From assembly GCA_002269645.1 (NCBI GenBank), contig NIVC01000109.1, positions 1 to 64,000 of the forward strand: a DNA stretch of 64,000 nucleotides, read 5' to 3'. Below the pieces are notes generated by a model. The model made no database searches and had not been told where the DNA came from. It saw only the letters and a list, made by a program, of their open reading frames with translations. This DNA is from Macrostomum lignano. Taxonomy: Eukaryota. Both the position numbers and the translations under genes were made by a program. Positions 1 to 12,798 of the stretch are shown here, in pieces (the first letter of the stretch is position 1; each line of letters begins with the position of its first letter).

Positions 1-560
1 AAATCCTCTCCGTAGGCTAAAATGTCGTCGACATAGTGCAGCAGGTTCGTGCATCCTGCTAGCATGTATGCTGTTAGTCGACTCATCGTTGCTGGGCTGT
101 TGCTAAGTCCCATCGGCGATCGATTGTACTCGTATACTTGTCCATTGTAGGTTTTGAAAGCCGTGTACTGTCGTGACTCTTTCTCGATTTCAATTTGCCA
201 AAATCCATGACGTAGGTCGAACACCGTGAACAATTTTGCCGTGTTGAGCTTTGCTAGTAGTTCGGAGATCTTCGGTAGGCTTTGCTGATCCGTCGGTATG
301 TACTTGTTCAACAGTCTGAAGTCGCATACGAGTCGTCTTTCGTTTGTCTCCTTCTTCTGTACCAGTAGGCACGGTGAGGAGTAAGCCGAAATAGCTTTGC
401 TGATGATGCCGTGCTTTAGCATTTTATCGATGATTTCGTCAAAGTGTTGTTGCAGATGCTTGGCGATCGGGTACGGCTTGCACTGAATTGGTTCCGTGTG
501 CGGCAGAAGTTTGATTTCCTGTTTGATGTCCTTGGCTCGTCCGATGTCGTAATCATGATG
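1..560 (-). other. Reverse transcriptase domain (partial)
   Basis: PIQCKPYPI, SAYSSPCLLVQKK, RLVCDFRLLNK, TVFDLRHGFWQI, TAFKT, PMGLSNSPATM, YVDD (24-35). Confidence 0.96.
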
Positions 561-3500
561 GCAGAAGGCTTCGTTGTACTTCCACAACAGCTGTCGAACT
601 TTCCTCTTTTGCTGTTCCGTAATCGGGCTGTCATCCAAATTGATCTTCTTTTGAAATTCTTCCTCTGTTAGTCGTGGAGTCGCTTGTTCAATCAGCATAA
701 CCGATGCTTGGGTGTTGAGATGACCGATGCACATTCCTTGTCGTAGATGAACCGTTTCTGTGTTCGGGTTGAAGATTTGTACTGGCAGTTGCTTATCCTT
801 TGCAACCAGCACTAGTGCCGTAGGCATCATGATTTGATGTTTTGCCGTGACTCTCCTGTGTGGATCAAATATCATTGCTTCATCTGCCGCGCTGGTCGTT
901 TTCGCTCTGACCCAGCATGCGCTTTCAGGCTGGATAATGACATCTTGCTGCAGAGTTACTTTCGGTAGTACTCGAATCTGGTTGATCAGCGGTTGCTCCA
1001 CCGTGTCGATCCTAAACGTTTGCTTGTTGAAGTCGAAGGTCAATGGTAGTTGAAGCTGCTTGAACGTGTCGATTCCAACGATGACGTCTTGGTTTGGTAG
1101 TCTGTCGATGATGTACGTCGGGACCGTCAGCTGTTTATTAGCAATTTTCAAGTCGATATCTGCTTTTCCTAGGATGTTGAGTGAATGTCCTCCTGCTCCT
1201 GCAACTGCGATTGCTGCTGGTCGTACCGCGAGTCGTAGCTTGTTGCATAATTGTTGCGAGATGACTGTGATCGAGCTGCCTGAATCCAGTAGTGCTCGAC
1301 ATGGCAAGTTGTTGACAATGACCTGAGCCATTGCTTTGCCAATCTCGGCGTGTAGCGTACAGACGTAGTTTTCCGGCCATTTTGGCTCGTGCTGTTCTGC
1401 TTGATAGTTGGGTGGTTGTATCCTTGGTGCCGTTGGTGTTGTCGGAATCGATGGATATAGCCGCGTTGCTAGTGTCGGTTGCCCTTGAACCTCACAATGT
1501 GCAGTTTCTGTTAGTTCTAAACTGTTGTCGCTTTCCGTTGTCGTTCTTTGCATTATGGCATTCACTGTCTTCTTAGCTCTTGGACAAGTTTGACTGAAGC
1601 ACCGTACGATCGATGAAATGATGAAGATTGCCGTGACAATCCACACAATGCAAGCACCGTAGAAGATGAATCCTTGATAGAGACTGCCTCTTCCATTGAG
1701 CAGCTCCCAGAAGCTATTTGTCCAAAATGATTTGATGGCGCTGTCCATTGAAACAAGGACGGGAAATCTTCCTGTCCCGGTTCCTTTGTCCTTTCTTGTG
1801 AACAGCTGGTGAATCATCTTGCGTTGGGTGATGAACGCTTGCAAGAAGTCGTTGATCGTCCATCCTGGTGTTATCTCGTCAAGTTGGATATCGGCGAATG
1901 GCGTATACTTCGTTCTGTTGAATCGGATTTTCAAATCCTCCATGTCGTAGTTTTCGTCGACGATTACTTCCGGTTCTGTGACGTTTGCTGTCGTTCCAGT
2001 TGTTTTGATGACGTGTAGTGCATTGTCCAGTTGATAGTAGTTTACTGCCGTGGTGCAAGGTCTCGGTATTGCGGTGCCAACGATGATGTTGTGTACCGTG
2101 TCCAAGAATCCCTGAATTCGTTTTCCTTCGTAGAACGCTTCAATCCTTGGCTTATCGTAGCAGGTTGTTGACGTGTTTGACGGCAAGATGTTAAAGTGCT
2201 GTATCGGCGTGCACTTGTATATCAACAGATGCTCGTATATTGGAACTGCCAAAACGTTCGTCATTCCGGTGATTTTACGAAAAGTCATCGTAGGGTTGAC
2301 ATAGTAGTTTTGTCTGGCATAATTTAAGTTGATTGCGTGCATTTTGCAAGTTAGCTGGACCAGTGTTCGATGCAAGTGGTTTAACTGGTTGTGTAGATTG
2401 TGATCCAAAGCCGTTATCTTTGCTGACAACAGCCGGTTTGACACCAGTTTGGGACGTTCGATGTCACGTCGTCTTCTATTCTGTTTTTCTTGTTGCTGAT
2501 ACGTTCCATTGATGATTGCCAAGAAGGTTTGTTTGTCTTCATCCTTTACGTAGACTGGTATCTCTTGTTCCGAGATGAATAGTGTCTTGTCTGTATCCTT
2601 GCATTTCAGTTTTTGCTCGACTGGTTTCTTTTGAAACGTCAGTGCCAAGTCTCCTGACTTTGCCAAAAACGTATTTGACAGTAGTCCTCCTTCAACTGTG
2701 TGATACTTTTGAAGCTTGCAGTCAATTTCCGGCTCAACTTCCCACGCGAAGAAGTATTGTCGTGATTTGTACGGTTCCTCATAGTGTGATTGTGCTCTGT
2801 GCTCAATCTGCCATCGATAGTCTTGATGATATGTTGGACTCAGTGGTAGACTGTGTAGTTCTTCCTTCCGTAGAATCGGCGTTGGACACCATCCTTCACT
2901 GTATCGACATTCGCTTAGTTGCAGCTGTAACGATTCCATTTTCTCGTACGGATTGTAGTAGAATGGAATATTTCTGATCAAGTAGCTGTTGCGTGCCATA
3001 TATTCTTTCCATTTTCCGAAGAAGTGAATATATCGACCGTTGGCTGAATTCTTTGTTCTGAACAGCTGTGCGTTGCCGACCTTCTCATCTGGTTCCAGTT
3101 CACCATCCTTTGAAAATAGTGTTTGATTCCATTGTAGGCATTCCGCGTGCGACACATGTAGCTCATGTTGTTTAAATCGGATCCGGTTCCATTGTCCGCG
3201 CCAAACTTTTTCCACCAGGTGCTTGTCTCTGAAGCATACTATCCCGTGTTGTCGATGCTTCTTGATGTTAGCCTTGTAGAGATCGAGTGTAATCTTCTTT
3301 GGTTTTGTCTGGTTTGTCTTGAAGTAACTGCATTTGATGTCGGTTGGTATCTTGTAGATCATCGGTTGGATATGCGCATCCGTTGGACAAATCATTGGCT
3401 TTTCCGTTGCCGTTGCTTTGGCGACTACTGCTATCAGTAGTATCACGATGATCCAGAATAGCCAGTTTTTCCACTTCTTGGATTTTGCCGTTGTCCTTGC

Positions 3501-5318
3501 TGGCATTGGCTGCGATCGCCATTCGTTATCTTCCATGTCCGCATCATATTCTTTCGGTTGTTCCATTGGCTGATCCAGGCGGAAGGCTTCTGATTCGCTT
3601 TGCTTTTTGGTTATTTCATTATCTTCGTCTGCGGCTTCTTCCGATGTTTCCGTTGTTTCACTCCATTGCGTTTGGTATCTTTTCTCTGTCTTGTAGTCGA
3701 CCGTTTGAATATAGGCTTCACCATTTCGTTTGTATCGGATCTCGTAGCATTCGTCGCTGTCGGAACTCGGCTTTTCTTTCACCTGTTCTTTTTCCATTTC
3801 TTCATCTTTCCATTGTATTTCGTAGCCTTGATCGCTGTCGGAACTTAGATTCTCCGCTCTCGGTTCTTCCTGCATTCCTCTTTCGGCTTGGTAGTCGTTC
3901 GTGTCATCACGCACCTCGCAGTCGTGGTCGTTGCCGTAACTTCTACATTCTTCTTCTTCTTTCATTTCTTTGTCTTTCATGCTCGTTTTGTCGTCATCCA
4001 CTGTTGTCGATTCATAGTTGTTTTCTTCGCCGGTTTTCATCTTTTCTTCGTTGCCGATGTCGCTCTCCGCCTCCTCCCTTGTCTTGTGATTTACTTTCTT
4101 CCTGTTTTCTCTGCTGTCTCCGGTGGTCTCTTTTAATTTGATCATTTCGGTTTCATTCGTCTCTTCTGTGTTGTCAGTGTTGTCCTCGTGCGTCGTCTTC
4201 TTTTCGATCAAGCTGATGTCAAGTTCCGGGACTGTGAAGTCCATTTCCAAGTCGTCAATTGTGAACACTTGCTGTTCTTGCTGTTCATTTTCCGGTGTGT
4301 ACGTGATGGCATTCGCGTATCGTGGCATTGCTTGCGTCGGCTGTCTTTGTGTGTATCTGACGTTGCGTGGCCTGTAGCCATTACTTCTGAAGCGGCCTTC
4401 GTTTCCGAAGCGGCCATCATTTCCGGAGCGGTCATTATTTCCGAAGCGTCTATCATTTCCGAAGCGTCTCATTCCTTGTTGTTGGCGATTTTGATAGTGC
4501 TGCCATGGTTTCTGCGGCTTCTGATTGTTGAATATCTGTCGCGGCTTGTCGTATCTTGTTGACCAATGAGGACAATTAATCTGATAATGTCCTTCTTGTC
4601 CGCAGTAGTAACATCTGGCTGAGGCTTGTTCATTTCGTCTTTTTTGTTCGGCGATAGCAGCTGTCTGGTGCTGCATTAACTTGTTTAGTTGCTGCGTCAG
4701 TTTCTGCACTTCATTGTTGCCTGTCGTCATTAATGGGGCACTGGCTTCCCATTGCATTCCGCAACGCAAAAGGTCTTCTTCGGTTTCGATATTTTCACGC
4801 AAAAGTCTATCCCGAAGTGACGGCTGTGCGTTGTTTATTACGTGCAGGATGAGGTTTTGTTCACGATCCATCAATCGTTGTCTTTCTCTGGCGGCCAATT
4901 CTGCCGCTCCCAGTGGTGGTTGGTCCGCAGCTTGCAGCGGTGGCTGATGCAGTGCCTTAATTATCTGGCGGATATCGTCCACAAAGGCGAGGAAGGATTC
5001 TGTTGCTTGCATCCTTCTGTTATGCAACTTGTGCAGCAGCACTGATCTGTTTGTGCCGCAACGGTTGAAATGCGCGCGCAGTTGAATGATTAGTGCTGGA
5101 TAATTTTGCTGTGTTGCCGCATCCAGCTTGCCGTAAATTTCTCGCGCAGTACCTTGGAGAAGAGGTGGCAGCAGCTGTGCCTTCTCTGGATTTTGTAGGT
5201 TGTATTCCCTACATACCAGGTCAAAATGGTCGACAAATGTGTTAAAATCTTTCTCCATCGAGAAAGTACCGACCGTTTCTTTGATGTCTCTGTGTACCGT
5301 TGGATTGCGCCGCGCCAT
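1..5318 (-). CDS. Gag-Env-Pro-RT polyprotein, 3'-partial, at least 1772 aa
   Basis: Manual translation found no stop between the in-frame TGA at 5343-5345 and position 1. First ATG at 5318 (MARRNPTVHRDIKETVGTFSMEKDFNTFVDHFDLVCREYNL...). Not listed in the ORF track. Confidence 0.93.
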   Translation of the reverse strand, partial: MARRNPTVHRDIKETVGTFSMEKDFNTFVDHFDLVCREYNLQNPEKAQLLPPLLQGTAREIYGKLDAATQQNYPALIIQLRAHFNRCGTNRSVLLHKLHNRRMQATESFLAFVDDIRQIIKALHQPPLQAADQPPLGAAELAARERQRLMDREQNLILHVINNAQPSLRDRLLRENIETEEDLLRCGMQWEASAPLMTTGNNEVQKLTQQLNKLMQHQTAAIAEQKRRNEQASARCYYCGQEGHYQINCPHWSTRYDKPRQIFNNQKPQKPWQHYQNRQQQGMRRFGNDRRFGNNDRSGNDGRFGNEGRFRSNGYRPRNVRYTQRQPTQAMPRYANAITYTPENEQQEQQVFTIDDLEMDFTVPELDISLIEKKTTHEDNTDNTEETNETEMIKLKETTGDSRENRKKVNHKTREEAESDIGNEEKMKTGEENNYESTTVDDDKTSMKDKEMKEEEECRSYGNDHDCEVRDDTNDYQAERGMQEEPRAENLSSDSDQGYEIQWKDEEMEKEQVKEKPSSDSDECYEIRYKRNGEAYIQTVDYKTEKRYQTQWSETTETSEEAADEDNEITKKQSESEAFRLDQPMEQPKEYDADMEDNEWRSQPMPARTTAKSKKWKNWLFWIIVILLIAVVAKATATEKPMICPTDAHIQPMIYKIPTDIKCSYFKTNQTKPKKITLDLYKANIKKHRQHGIVCFRDKHLVEKVWRGQWNRIRFKQHELHVSHAECLQWNQTLFSKDGELEPDEKVGNAQLFRTKNSANGRYIHFFGKWKEYMARNSYLIRNIPFYYNPYEKMESLQLQLSECRYSEGWCPTPILRKEELHSLPLSPTYHQDYRWQIEHRAQSHYEEPYKSRQYFFAWEVEPEIDCKLQKYHTVEGGLLSNTFLAKSGDLALTFQKKPVEQKLKCKDTDKTLFISEQEIPVYVKDEDKQTFLAIINGTYQQQEKQNRRRRDIERPKLVSNRLLSAKITALDHNLHNQLNHLHRTLVQLTCKMHAINLNYARQNYYVNPTMTFRKITGMTNVLAVPIYEHLLIYKCTPIQHFNILPSNTSTTCYDKPRIEAFYEGKRIQGFLDTVHNIIVGTAIPRPCTTAVNYYQLDNALHVIKTTGTTANVTEPEVIVDENYDMEDLKIRFNRTKYTPFADIQLDEITPGWTINDFLQAFITQRKMIHQLFTRKDKGTGTGRFPVLVSMDSAIKSFWTNSFWELLNGRGSLYQGFIFYGACIVWIVTAIFIISSIVRCFSQTCPRAKKTVNAIMQRTTTESDNSLELTETAHCEVQGQPTLATRLYPSIPTTPTAPRIQPPNYQAEQHEPKWPENYVCTLHAEIGKAMAQVIVNNLPCRALLDSGSSITVISQQLCNKLRLAVRPAAIAVAGAGGHSLNILGKADIDLKIANKQLTVPTYIIDRLPNQDVIVGIDTFKQLQLPLTFDFNKQTFRIDTVEQPLINQIRVLPKVTLQQDVIIQPESACWVRAKTTSAADEAMIFDPHRRVTAKHQIMMPTALVLVAKDKQLPVQIFNPNTETVHLRQGMCIGHLNTQASVMLIEQATPRLTEEEFQKKINLDDSPITEQQKRKVRQLLWKYNEAFCHHDYDIGRAKDIKQEIKLLPHTEPIQCKPYPIAKHLQQHFDEIIDKMLKHGIISKAISAYSSPCLLVQKKETNERRLVCDFRLLNKYIPTDQQSLPKISELLAKLNTAKLFTVFDLRHGFWQIEIEKESRQYTAFKTYNGQVYEYNRSPMGLSNSPATMSRLTAYMLAGCTNLLHYVDDILAYGED
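1020..1340 (-). other. Retropepsin-type aspartic protease domain
   Basis: AQVIVNNLPCRALLDSGSSITVIS (DSG at 1278-1286), GAGGHSLNILG flap-like segment, and DVIVGIDTF. Confidence 0.9.
1570..3479 (-). other. Env domain: signal peptide, gB-like class III fusion ectodomain, transmembrane helix
   Basis: Signal KKWKNWLFWIIVILLIAVVAKA (about 3414-3479); 12 ectodomain Cys; 6 N-x-S/T sequons; RRRR at 2466-2477; CYDKP at 2148-2162; TM FIFYGACIVWIVTAIFIISSIV at 1605-1670. Confidence 0.85.
4330..5318 (-). other. Gag domain (capsid-like region, CCHC zinc knuckle, R/G/N-rich tail)
   Basis: CYYCGQEGHYQINC at 4572-4613 fits CX2CX4HX4C; followed by RRFGNDRRFGNNDRSGNDGRFGNEGRF repeats. Confidence 0.88.
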
Positions 5319-6010
5319 TTGTTGATAGGGTAGAACGGTAGTTCAAGATCTGGATCGATTTGTAACGGATCGTCCAGTGTGGTGTTTGCCTCGGAATAAA
5401 CCTCGACTGTAACGAATTGCCTTGTGGTGTCGATTTGTTATTCGCTGGCCTCGGATGCGGTGTGGCTTGCTGCCACTGGTTGTCCTCAAATGAACTTGTT
5501 CTGTTCGCTTGCTGATTTCGCACTTATGCGGCGTCCCGCAAAGTGTATCTTCAAGTTGAAGTGGACTTGTCTTCTTGCTTTGCAAAGTCTTTCTTCTCTT
5601 CTTTGACTCTCTCTCTTTTGTCAATTAACTCTGCTCTCCACGAAGTTTCAATTAATTTCGGTTTTGTTTTAGTTTTTGTGCCGGCAAAATGTTTCAGTTA
5701 TTTTTTGTTTGTTTGCGTCGACGATTCTTTTTATTTTTGGTTTGTTTTCAGTGTACCGACGAAGTTAATTTCGGTTTTGTTTTAAACTCACACTTGCTCG
5801 AGCTCGTCAAAACAAAATTTTAACACGCGTGCTCAAACTGTACTCAAATTTGACAGGTGCTCAAACCTGTACACCAAATTTTACTCGAGTTTCAAAACGT
5901 AACGGACTTAAAAAGTGTTAACTCTAACACGTGCGCGCAAAATTAATGAAGTCGCTCTGTCGTCACTTTACAATAGCTTGGCCAGGCTATTGCTCAAGGT
6001 TTGAGTAGTG

Positions 6011-6030
6011 CCGAGAGGGCGAGATCACCA
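6011..6030 (-). promoter_or_regulatory. Putative primer-binding site TGGTGATCTCGCCCTCTCGG
   Basis: Canonical LTR-CA + 2 nt + TGG arrangement. Cognate tRNA not identified. Confidence 0.65.
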
Positions 6031-6032
6031 AT

Positions 6033-6957
6033 TGATGTGTTCCTTATTACCCGACTTTCGATAATCAAGGAACAATCACTTCTAGCTCAACAGCTAGGCA
6101 ACCCAGTAAGTCAAACGAAGGTATTCAATTACCTTTAATCCGGATTTGAATTTCTTGAGTAGTTCTCGCTAGGAACTTGTCAGTAGATCTCGTAGATCAG
6201 GCGCCTTGATTCTTCAGTTGCTCTGGTCCTGGTTCCTCTTGTACTTCCGATAAGTTCTTCCGGCCGGTATCTTCCGTCAGGACCAATCAGAGGCCTCGTA
6301 GCAACAATGGGTACCCTGCGCCAAACTGCGGTCTAAATTAAGCCTCCTTCTTCTAGCAGTGCCTCTATGCACTCTAGGTATAGCTCCGGAAACCACTGAT
6401 AGTCCTCTAAGATCTATCAGGGGCAGTCCTTCTGGAGACTGCAACCAATGGAGTCTAAACAGACTCAAGAGTCTCAACAGACTCAATTAGACTCAAGTCT
6501 CAATAGACTTGAGCGAGACGTCTCTAACACAACGGGCGCAAATAAGGAAGGCTTACCGCAACAACTCGACCGAGTCTCGATTGACTTGGTAGATCAGGAA
6601 GTCCTCCTAAGGCTTCCTCTTCGGAGCGCTCCTCTTCCGTGGGGAGAATGGCTCCGGTACCGCTTCAGATCGCTTGTATTTATAGACAAGTTTTTGATCC
6701 AAAATAGTATCATGACAATTCACGTGTTGCGCTAAAAGGGGAAAATGGCTCATGGCGTATTATTCTGGTAACATCTTTTTCTGGTAGCGTGATTCATTCA
6801 AAGCTTAGGCGCACATGCGTGTACTTACTTACTTATAGTAGTATTATACGATTATCTTCTTTTTTCCTTTTTTAACGGGAGGTAGAACACTCTACAGTTG
6901 TACGTAATCCTTCATATTCTTGTAACAATAACAACGATAATCAACGATATTACATCA
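6033..6957 (-). repeat. 5' LTR (925 bp) of the env-bearing Gypsy element
   Basis: 6-bp terminal inverted repeat TGATGT/ACATCA; ends 2 nt before the TGG of the PBS; internal TATAAATA. The partner LTR is outside the window, so the boundaries are not confirmed by pairing. Confidence 0.75.
6677..6684 (-). promoter_or_regulatory. Putative LTR TATA box (TATAAATA)
   Basis: Motif lies inside the LTR in the element's sense orientation. Confidence 0.5.
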
Positions 6958-8806: not shown

Positions 8807-11800
8807 TCACACTAGCGGCAGTCGCGGCTTAACCAAGCCTCCGTCGCCCTCCGACACGAACCGTTTCCGACCCTTAGTGGGCATCTCCTGCTGCAGGCGA
8901 GCGCTGAGAAAGCCCACATGGCCGGCGTGCTGGCAGAATCGCTCCAGCAGCAGGTAGGCGTTCGGCACGTCCAGCTGAATGTCCGGGATGTCGGCATACA
9001 CCCGGCGAAGGCCCTTCTCCAGCTGGTCAACGGTGAGCAGCACCGACTCGGACAGGGCGGCGATGAGGCGACAGACCCGCTGGCACACCTCCATGGTGCT
9101 GCGCTCGATCACCATGACAACGGCTTGGTAGACCAACTCGTGATGGAAGTGAGGCGCCTCCAGCTCCTTGACGCAGCGGGCGGCTTCGTCAACGTCGTTG
9201 CTGGACAGAAATTCGTCCAGCAGCAGCTTCATCTTCTTCACCAGGTGCTTGGTGGGACGGGCCAGGCCGTGGCCGGAAACGCCCCACACCTGAGGATGGG
9301 GTAGGGGTTCGTCAGGGGCGATTCTCGAGGTAGGGTGGAGAGAGTCAGGGGCGATTCTCTGGATAGGGTGGAGAGAGTCAGGGGCGATTCTCTGGATAAG
9401 GTGGGGAGAGTCCGTGGCGATTCTTAGAGAGCGATTCTCTGGATAGGGTGGGGAGAGTCAGGGGCGATTCTCTGGATAAGGTGGGGAGAGTCAGGGGCGA
9501 TTCTCTGGATAAGGTGGGGAGAGTCAGGGGCGATTCTCTGGATAAGGTGGGGAGAGTCCGTGGCGATTCTTAGAGAGCGATTCTCTGGATAGGGTGGGGA
9601 GAGTCAGGGGCGATTCTCTGGATAAGGTGGGGAGAGTCAGGGGCGATTCTCTGGATAAGGTGGGGAGAGTCCGTGGCGATTCTTAGAGAGCGATTCTCTG
9701 GATAGGGTGGGGAGAGTCAGGGGCGATTCTCTGGATAAGGTGGGGAGAATCCGTGGCGATTCTTAGAGAGCGATTCTCTGGATAAGGTGGGGAGAGTCAG
9801 GGGCGATTCTCTAGGTAGGGTGAGGAGAGTCAGAGGCGATTCTCTAGGTAGGGTGGGGAGAGTCAGGGGCGATTCTTAGAGAGCGATTCTCTGGATAAGG
9901 TGGGGAGAGTCAGGGGCGATTCTCTGGATAAGGTGGGGAGAGTCCGTGGCGATTCTTAGAGAGCGATTCTCTGGATAGGGTGGGGAGAGTCAGGGGCGAT
10001 TCTCTGGATAAGGTGGGGAGAATCCGTGGCGATTCTTAGAGAGCGATTCTCTGGATAAGGTGGGGAGAGTCAGGGGCGATTCTTTGGATAAGGTGGGGAG
10101 AATCCGTGGCGATTCTTAGAGAGCAATTCTCTGGATAGGGTGGGGAGAGTCAGGGGCGATTCTCTGTGTAAGGTGGAGAGTCAGGAGCGATTCTCTGGGT
10201 AGGGTGGAGCGATTCAGGGGCGATTCTTTAGGTAGGGTGGGGAGTCAGTGATGATTTGATAGAATTTAGTCAGGAACAAGTGAGGGCCTATTCAAACAAC
10301 AACAACAACAAACAACAAAGTACACTGGATAGTCTCTAGTGTCACAAGGACAAACAAATTCAAACAAGGACATATAGAGGTCAAGCCTCACCTTATCCAG
10401 ACAGTACATGCTATGTGTCATAGTGAGCAGGTTCTCAGCCTTGGCCAGAGCTTTCATAGTGTGGCCACTATCAACCCGGCCCTTGTAGGTGGCCACGAAC
10501 TTGGGCGGCAGCAGGTCATCAGCGATGGCCCTGGCGATGAACTTTCCAATCATGTCGGGCGCGTCCGGCAGGTCGATGGTTAAATCGTCGACCTCCTTGA
10601 GCAAGAGGTCGAATCCGTGGACGAGCTCTTCGCTGGAGACGGCCGGGCCGACCAAGCTGCCCAACAGCTGGGAGGTGAGCTCCCGCTGCAGAGCGTTGCG
10701 CTGCACACTGGCACTGATGGCCAGGTAGGGTATGCGCTCCCTGTGCTGCGGGTTGGTGCGCAGGTCCCGCAGCTGCTGGATCACCTGCGAAGCGAGTTGA
10801 AGAGGCATATCGAATCAGCTTACTTATAGTAGAGTTTCAAAATTTAGATGCCATTTTTGTGAAATCTAGATGCCGCTTTTGAGAGATCTAGATGCCATTT
10901 TTTGAGAGATCTAGATGCCATTTTTTGAGAGATCTAGATGTCATTTTTTGAGAGATCTTGATGCCTTTTTTGAAAGATCTAGATGTCATTTTTGAGAGAT
11001 CTAGATGCCATTTTTTGAGAGATCTAGATGCCATTATTGAGAGATCTAGATGCCATTTTTGAGAAATCTAGATGTCATTTTTGAGAGATCTAGATGCCAT
11101 TTTTGAGAGATCTAGATGCCGCTTTTGAGAGATCTGGATGTCATTTTTGAGAGATCTAGATGCTACTTTTGAGAGATTTAGATGCTACGTTTGAGAGATC
11201 TAGATGCCATTTTTGAGAGATCTAGATGTCATTTTTGAGAGATCTAGATGCCATTTTTGAGAGATCTAGATGCCATTTTTGAGAGATCTAGATGTCATTT
11301 TTGAGAGATCTAGATGCCATTATTGAGAGATCTAGATGCCATTTTTGAGAGATCTAGATGCCATTATTGAGAGATCTAGATGCCATTTTTTCAGAGATCT
11401 AGATGTCATTTTTGAGAGATCTAGATGCTACTTTTGAGAGATTTAGATGCCATTTTTTCAGAGATCTAGATGTCATTTTTGAGAGATCTAGATGCTACGT
11501 TTGAGAGATTTAGATGCCATTTTTTCAGAGATCTAGATGCCATTTTTGAGAGATCTAGATTCCATTTTTGAAAAATCTAGATGCTTTTTCGAGAGATCTA
11601 GATGCGATTTTTTCAGATTTAGTTGTCATTTTTGGGAGATTCAGATGCAATTTTGAGAAAATCTGGAACAACTCGATGCTTATCTAGACGTAAAGTAAAA
11701 AATAAAAAACACACAAACGTGAAGATTTCATACCTCTTTAACCTGGCCGTGCTCAAAGTACTCCTTAACCAGCGCAGTGAACTGCTCCTCAAACTGCTCC

Positions 11801-12798
11801 ATGGTCAGCTTCGGCACAGTCAGCTGCAGTCGGACAGTGTCCTGACTGTCCGAATCATAGTTCGGATCGTTCTCGTCCAGCACGCCGACAGCGTCCAGCT
11901 CGCTGCCCGGCCGGCCCCAGACGCCTTTGCCGCCGGCGCCGCCTTTCTTTGGCAGGCCGCGGAGGCCCGTGCGGCTCTTCCGGCTGTTCTTGCCCAGGGC
12001 CGCGGCGGCGGAGGCGACGGCAGGGGCGCCGCCGGATGACGAGGCTGAGCCGCCGTCTGGTGAACCGACGGAGCCGCCGTTGGTCTCGGGGGCGCCGGAG
12101 TGATGATGCGCGCCGGTGCCAACTACGGTTGCCATGGCGCCAGGGAAGGACACTCGGTGATGGCGCTTGGCGCGCTTGAACACGCGCAGCTCGCGCGGCA
12201 TGGCGTCGGGCGGGTCTTCGGCAACCTGCGGCAGCCAATGGGGGAGTCCTGAGCTGTTGAATCTCACCTTTTATGACTGCCTAAATCTCAGCTGGATATC
12301 TAACATGTCATTGAAATCTCACCCCCTGACTTATACTGGTCCCTAAATCTCACTCCTCAAATGACTCATACTGGTCCCTAAATCTCACTCCTCAAATGAC
12401 TCATACTGGTCCCTAAATCTCACTCCTCAAATGACTCATACTGGTCCCTAAATCTCACTTCTCAAATGACTCATATTGGTCCCTAAATCTCACCACTCTA
12501 ATGACTCATTCTGGTCCCTAAAGTGTCACCCCTAGAATGACTCATACTGGTCTGTAAATCTCACCCCTAATGACTTGCACTGGCCCCTAAATCTCAAGGT
12601 TGTCACTACATATCCTCAAGTCAAATTTAGAGGTCAAGTGAAATTTCAGAAACACGCAGACACCCAACTTACAATGCCGCCACCGTCACCCGCTCCAGCC
12701 GACTCATCGATGGGATCTTCATCAACCAGCTGCTGGTCAACAAAGTCGTCTTCGTTGATAAAATCCGGGTCATTATTGGCAACTCGACGGTGTGACAT
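8807..12798 (-). CDS. PDCD4: Programmed cell death protein 4 (two MA3 domains); exons 12798-12673, 12225-11734, 10784-10392, 9289-8807; about 497 aa
   Basis: Hallmark RGLPKKGGAGGKGVWG...DPNYD and C-terminal RGRK-like KGRKRFVSEGDGG. All introns are GT-AG phase 0 and join in frame. Confidence 0.95.
9300..10250. repeat. Intronic minisatellite, about 30-33 bp unit (GGGGCGATTCTCTGGATAAGGTGGGGAGAGTCA and variants)
   Basis: Fills the last coding intron of PDCD4. Confidence 0.92.
10845..11690. repeat. Intronic minisatellite, about 21-22 bp unit (GAGAGATCTAGATGCCATTTTT)
   Basis: Dozens of tandem copies in a PDCD4 intron. Confidence 0.93.
12290..12600. repeat. Intronic minisatellite, 35 bp unit (CCCTAAATCTCACTCCTCAAATGACTCATACTGGT)
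   Basis: Tandem copies in the first coding intron of PDCD4. Confidence 0.88.

Follow-up and report, generated by a model that had tools for sequence, protein, structure and literature searches.

Candidate ESCRT late-domain motifs in the cytosolic Env tail of a gag-env-pol Ty3/gypsy errantivirus from the flatworm Macrostomum lignano

Errantiviruses of the Ty3/gypsy type with a gag-env-pol gene order and an HSV/gB-type Env are described from nematodes, bryozoans and flatworms (Chary and Hayashi, PMC13524379), and one of them, Platyhelminthes_Rhabditophora_Mlig_errantivirus_2, is listed there and placed in Ty3/gypsy. This 2026 survey covers ectodomains and Pol, and gives transmission mechanisms as elusive for most of these elements; a 2012 review (PMC3383448) stated that use of ESCRT by errantiviruses was unknown. 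The main text of PMC13524379 has no matches for late domain, ESCRT, budding or cytoplasmic, and its seven supplements have none for ESCRT or PTAP. The literature as we searched it has no mention of late domains on the Env tail of an errantivirus; closed-access papers and figure supplements may hold one. The element type is thus already known, and what we add to the published account is the late motifs on its Env tail and the consequences of a single-frame topology.

The motifs described here belong to the same three classes as the late domains of retroviruses, examples of which are HIV-1 p6 (PTAP and YPXnL), RSV p2b (PPXY), EIAV p9 (YPXL) and HTLV-1 (PPXY and PTAP). Retroviral late domains are likewise clustered, exchangeable in order (PMC8402826) and located in a disordered proline-rich stretch, and HIV p6, whose motifs are given in PMC10532540, precedes the protease as does the flatworm tail block. 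However, retroviral late domains are in Gag, whereas the flatworm motifs follow the transmembrane (TM) helix of a fusogen in a family whose Gag has none, and the likeness is one of sequence features. Foamy viruses offer another likeness, as retroelements in which budding depends on Env and Gag is without classical membrane targeting; their Env is a separate class I protein. The foamy virus late domains nonetheless lie in Gag (PMC8952818). Two further viral membrane proteins are informative. One is bluetongue virus NS3, a membrane glycoprotein reported to interact with ESCRT and carrying a PPXY, although it is a non-structural protein of a non-enveloped virus, and is neither a fusogen nor fused to Pol. 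The second is the West Nile virus E protein, a viral fusogen with late-domain-like PXAP and YCYL motifs, which are in the body of E and not in a long cytosolic tail (PMC3766686).

The window analysed here, a stretch of 64,000 nucleotides of Macrostomum lignano contig NIVC01000109.1, contains an element of this class at its left end on the minus strand. An open frame (3..5342; 1780 codons without a stop) runs off the contig start, and the single Gag-Env-Pol reading frame counted from its first ATG (5318) occupies 3..5318 and is cut by the contig start inside the reverse transcriptase; in other copies the open frames reach 2538 codons. The window copy has a one-base difference from the run contigs just upstream of this ATG, and a sister family uses the same start. 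Reading along the minus strand, the frame encodes Gag with a CCHC zinc knuckle (4572..4613; PF00098), an acidic linker, an internal signal peptide or signal anchor between Gag and Env (3405..3461, residues 628–646; hydropathy 2.41, with lysines before it), a gB-like ectodomain (1674..3404) with a putative furin-type RRRR cleavage site (2466..2477), the Env TM helix (1605..1673, about residues 1224–1242; hydropathy 2.43, and a helix in the model), a 92-residue cytosolic tail that forms the linker between Env and protease (1329..1604), an aspartic protease (1041..1331, residues 1338–1434; PF13650 E 1e-9, PF00077; DSG in the 1275–1292 region) and the N-terminal part of a reverse transcriptase (9..359; PF00078 E 8e-18). 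The linker joining the zinc knuckle to the signal peptide (window 3465–4300) is long and strongly acidic. Upstream of the frame are a primer binding site (6019..6030), a 12-mer identical to that of the published element, and a 5′ LTR of 864 bases (6033..6896, TG...CA; published LTR span 863–864); the 3′ LTR falls beyond the contig start, and RNase H and integrase Pfam domains are seen in a 100%-identical record, P0067. The LTR, the tRNA primer binding site and the order of Gag, Env, and protease-RT-RNase H-integrase fit the gag-env-pol errantivirus type, and the element shares with Mlig_errantivirus_2 and the published class (PMC13524379) its gene order, a gB-type Env between signal and TM helix, a multicopy state, the primer binding site 12-mer and the LTR length.

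The modelled ectodomain has a gB-like class III fold, and a fusion activity is predicted. All of the top listed Foldseek matches to a model of the ectodomain and tail (mean pLDDT 70, pTM 0.41) are to herpesvirus gB, the best with E 7e-20 and a TM-score of 0.35. The ectodomain also matches PF24664 with E 1e-5, although at 24.1 bits this is below the cut-off of 27 for that family; among named proteins, the closest Pol relatives come from nematodes and carry PF24664, and matches in the ESM Atlas (at 0.82) to viral fusion glycoproteins serve as leads only. In the window's element, and for families A and B1 among those described below, Gag begins with Met-Ala, 235 residues ahead of the zinc knuckle, leaving no matrix-sized region, which suggests that it has neither a matrix nor a myristoyl anchor.

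An earlier note on this DNA described three clustered ESCRT late-domain motifs in the Env tail just before the protease, and its positions agree exactly with the frame translation. LYPSI (1446..1460), PTAP (1425..1436) and PPNY (1404..1415) are on the minus strand in frame 3..5342, with 19 residues from the first residue of LYPSI to the last of PPNY, and the 23-residue segment quoted in the note corresponds to 1401–1469 of the same strand and frame. They match the late-domain definitions P(T/S)AP, YPxL/I and PPxY, and are candidate ligands for the ALIX V domain (LYPSI, which also fits a YxxPhi sorting signal), the TSG101 UEV domain (PTAP) and NEDD4-family WW domains (PPNY). The note took LYPSI for a near-match to the ALIX consensus, which undersells it, since YPXL/I is given as a PalA/ALIX-recognised form in PMC10532540, and LYPSI is thus a proper ALIX-type match. 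The Env-tail context is borne out by the TM helix upstream of the block and the Pfam aspartic protease downstream. The placement on the cytosolic side of a fusogen agrees with the gB-like ectodomain (by model and Foldseek) and with the predicted topology, in which the block follows the only TM helix after the ectodomain and would be accessible in the cytosol. The C-terminal part of the tail is predicted to be disordered, the last 74 residues of the model (614–687) being low-confidence coil with pLDDT <50. Just after the motifs there is a Trp-Pro pair (1374..1379, minus strand) that is invariant in all seven aligned family members and is probably the start of a protease-proximal segment.

P[TS]AP, PPxY and LYPx[LI] each have one match in the whole 1780-codon frame, and the combination of LYPSI, PTAP and PPNY is the sole such triple in the 127,996 six-frame residues of the window. 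Shuffling the 92-residue tail brings the three motifs together in 4 of 200,000 trials, and shuffling the proline-rich stretch of 32 residues that contains them does so in 0.04%, figures that are flattering as the region was picked post hoc. Comparisons between copies and families extend over three distances.

At least 61 matches to an Env-tail query are present in the source genome, and 11 of these are full-length with 100% identity. Among 90 loci, 58 give alignments of at least 80% across the TM-tail-protease region, representing 39 distinct haplotypes, and the three motifs are intact in 53 of these close copies; one of the others has PPAP, three are gapped inside a motif codon, and one lacks coverage of the block. 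L or M precedes the motif tyrosine, and PPxY has N, T, G or I at its variable position, with both prolines and the tyrosine fixed among shared variants (those present in at least two copies). The ten fixed motif codons include four with shared synonymous variants and none with shared non-synonymous variants, compared with 17 synonymous and 14 non-synonymous variants over 47 codons of the upstream tail, 16 and 6 over the 33 codons of the remainder of the tail, and 43 and 10 over 93 protease codons. This contrast is in the expected direction and is weak (Fisher p 0.044 and 0.069), and some of the copies may be haplotype duplicates. Exons of the host ALIX and TSG101 genes are each present at three loci (L091–L093 and L095–L097), so some of the identical element copies may reflect haplotype duplication and not separate insertions.

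There are also departures among the close copies. A common frame break in the tail, upstream of the motifs, is present in L028, L042, L046, L047 and L049, and another at a different position in L043, L044 and L045; in these copies Env ends early and the motifs fall in the Pol frame. The LTRs beside the frame-broken copies are 91–100% like that of the window, and the best-supported run-contig rows show no such frame break. The shared breaks may represent either a real sub-lineage or a recurrent assembly error. A second type of departure is seen in P0001, a gene model of the window's family in which the entire motif block is deleted in frame.

Searches of the source genome yielded eight families with Env, TM helix, tail and protease in one frame, and their tails are 17–60% identical; a ninth tail (L032) was not counted because of its 91% identity to L031. 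P[ST]AP is present in seven of the eight tails, compared with 0.24 expected from shuffles, and YPx[LI] in six (0.37 expected), while PPxY is in one (0.45 expected) and at chance level. Every family tail has at least one of the motifs, and permuted decoy motifs occur in at most two of the eight. The order varies, in that the window's family has YPxI-PTAP-PPxY and four of the others have P[ST]AP followed by YPx[LI], and the spacing varies too, so that the four-letter words are kept across tails that no longer align; such order swaps fit exchangeable late domains (PMC8402826). In all six YPx[LI] motifs the tyrosine is preceded by L or I. Departures include PPAP in D2, the lack of YPx[LI] in C1 and C3, and PNAP with YPRI in L032, which has a long open frame. 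Lysines are present in every tail. In a quick Env tree the eight families group as a single clade (support 92); they are therefore not independent draws, such that shuffle p-values overstate their independence. Conservation beyond the flanks is seen across the families in the case of P[ST]AP and YPx[LI], where the linker drifts, and within the window's family alone in the case of PPxY. From these tail sequences P[ST]AP plus YPx[LI] is the apparent conserved core, and the full triple is limited to the family of the window.

More distant relatives were collected by a search of 1.84 billion representatives, which gave 60 matches. Twenty-one of these had no locatable tail (eight without an anchor, seven ending early and six without a TM call, including P0004, which ends just after a PSAP), and five more were dropped (two own-genome families, two with mis-called TM helices and one truncated), leaving 34 tails. 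At least one motif is present in 11 of the 34 (2.27 expected) and none in 23, with P[ST]AP in five (0.31 expected), YPx[LI] in four (1.16) and PPxY in three (0.83); without P0005, which groups in the own-genome clade, any motif is present in 10 of 33 (2.17). In the ectodomains of the same 34 proteins, used as a control, any motif is found in four (5.17 expected), with P[ST]AP in two (0.32 expected). Among 42 tails, no 4-mer is shared as widely as P[ST]AP (its two words counted as one), which occurs in 12; the next occurs in four. The motif-bearing rows are scattered over the quick Env tree, which is compatible with repeated gain or loss, and their share is similar with an in-frame protease (6 of 17) and without one (5 of 17). 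No canonical motif is present in the stretch examined of a nematode element. Profile searches with the Env alignment returned no records beyond those already found, and none of 98 pattern matches in a metagenome scan was confirmed.

We conclude that the motifs probably are ESCRT late domains that act from the Env cytosolic tail of a gag-env-pol Ty3/gypsy errantivirus, with binding and budding functions predicted from sequence. The internal signal would thread Env into the ER with Gag on one side and the tail and Pol on the other, both cytosolic. Gag, with no matrix-sized region and no N-terminal glycine, would reach the membrane through the signal anchor or Env, and Env trimers would gather the tails at the bud neck. 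There PTAP would bind TSG101 (ESCRT-I), YPSI would bind ALIX and PPxY a NEDD4-type ligase, and ESCRT-III would cut the neck. Scission would precede protease activation, and as Pol is attached to the Env tail, fast scission would retain the enzymes in the particle until the protease frees them, by analogy with HIV Gag-Pol, where fast scission is shown to keep the enzymes inside before their release (PMC4900648). A caution is that the conserved look-alikes in West Nile virus E proved to be independent of TSG101 and ALIX (PMC3766686).

The candidate partners are encoded in the source genome, with matches to the TSG101 UEV domain (E 7e-39) and the ALIX V domain (E 8e-20); HECT ligases are numerous and may include one of the NEDD4 type. 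The host UEV keeps what we take to be the PTAP-pocket residues T58, Y68, N69, I70 and M95 (human numbering) and has a histidine at Y63, and the host ALIX V domain keeps a Phe-Tyr pair that presumably corresponds to F676-Y677.

A broader and more tentative proposal, which we hold to be somewhat doubtful, is that the class III fusogen of this clade is the organiser of budding, providing late domains from its tail, towing in Pol, and replacing the matrix and late-domain roles of Gag. If so, scission, Env incorporation and enzyme packaging would be tied together in one polypeptide, and the element would provide an example of a viral fusogen that bears late domains, along with direct evidence from sequence that Ty3/gypsy elements leave the cell in an ESCRT-dependent way, a trait arising in several lineages. 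The position of the motifs on a Pol-fused fusogen tail suggests an assembly logic unlike that of retroviruses, and how such elements may leave the cell. We note that conserved late domains would point to selection on these flatworm elements for making membrane-wrapped particles, something that cannot be read from the presence of the genes by itself, and that the tail motifs are short, named binding predictions.

The earlier note had the budding signals moving to the fusogen tail, and such a move from Gag is conjectural, as four of the seven families examined have a motif on the Gag side of Env as well, downstream of the zinc knuckle and ahead of the signal, and the tail has the position that p6 has in HIV, just before the protease. 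The Gag-side motifs are PPxY in B1, B2 and C1 (chance 5–11% each) and PSAP in C2, with a YPPI also in C1; the chance values for the four families are 2–11% each. No late motif is present in Gag of the window's family, nor on the Gag side in D1 and D2. In this clade, late motifs thus flank Env on both of its cytosolic sides, and relocation from Gag to the Env tail is one possible history. The loci concerned in this observation on the Gag-side linker are L031, L032, L034, L108 and L038, and families without a tail PPxY often have a PPxY there.

A different history is an insertion of env downstream of nucleocapsid and upstream of a late-domain peptide that had always preceded the protease, leaving a p6-like end of Gag stranded downstream of Env. 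The block would then still recruit ESCRT, as a relic of the Gag/Pol junction that is perhaps freed by the protease, and nothing would have moved to Env. Several observations agree with this: the block is directly before the protease, as is HIV p6; the distance from motif to protease is fairly constant (19–56 residues before the cut-off used); and two Gag-Env records, P0061 and P0029, halt about 30 residues past the motifs and so resemble a Gag ending in p6. However, these two ends are gene calls, the Gag identity of both records is by eye (a capsid-like region and zinc knuckle, with no Pfam match at 1e-4), and as they stop without a protease the motifs belong there to the Env frame. A further motif, LYPNL, is present in the N-terminal Gag region of P0061. 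Moreover, there is no motif before the protease in six of six env-less Gag-Pol database proteins (>250 residues upstream), nor in two env-less Gag frames from the source genome, although this is a weak comparison, the proteins being distant (24–36% identity) and not true sisters. Even with such an origin, the present-day block stays physically attached to the Env tail up to its cleavage, and we consider the stranded peptide an unlikely account.

We also considered a spliced gag-pol transcript that would make the block a true C-terminus of Gag, and rejected it, as no joint skipping env alone is present in the contigs of four runs; such contigs can show the presence of a transcript form and not its absence. 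One long skip, from 2645 to 6033, removes gag too; it comes, at very high depth, from a run whose kind is unknown. Contigs from two runs span the end of the ectodomain, the TM helix, the tail and the start of the protease.

It is similarly improbable that the motifs are trafficking signals, with YPSI acting as a YxxPhi signal for clathrin adaptors and PTAP and PPxY in ubiquitin-dependent MVB sorting, for Env turnover or exosome loading. Every YPx[LI] also fits YxxPhi, but six of the nine YxxPhi matches in the eight family tails have a proline at +1, and all six have a hydrophobic residue at −1, which the ALIX motif needs and YxxPhi does not; the tyrosines are also 54–89 residues from the TM helix. 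There are precedents for such uses, in that a late domain in the E-cadherin tail serves vesicle loading (PMC9511404), the EIAV YPXL is tied to both AP-2 and ALIX (in a reference title in PMC8402826), and ZAM particles take an endosome/exosome route (PMC3383448). Sorting overlaps with our preferred reading as late domains, because endosomal sorting and budding share machinery. Finally, chance matches in a linker rich in P, T and A, or residues kept for the structure of a protease cleavage site, are very improbable and are largely refuted for P[ST]AP and YPx[LI], since composition-matched shuffles and permuted decoys fall far below their counts and the motifs are kept, in altered order and at altered spacing, in tails that cannot be aligned, even though PPxY alone is not enriched across families and two-thirds of the distant tails lack motifs.

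Two other features of these loci are of note. In families C1 and C2 (L037 and L038) the ectodomain has a long threonine-rich, mucin-like insert between basic cleavage-like sites. In the window, exons of a PDCD4-like gene with two MA3 domains (8807–12270) are on the same strand as the element and end ~2 kb upstream of its LTR.
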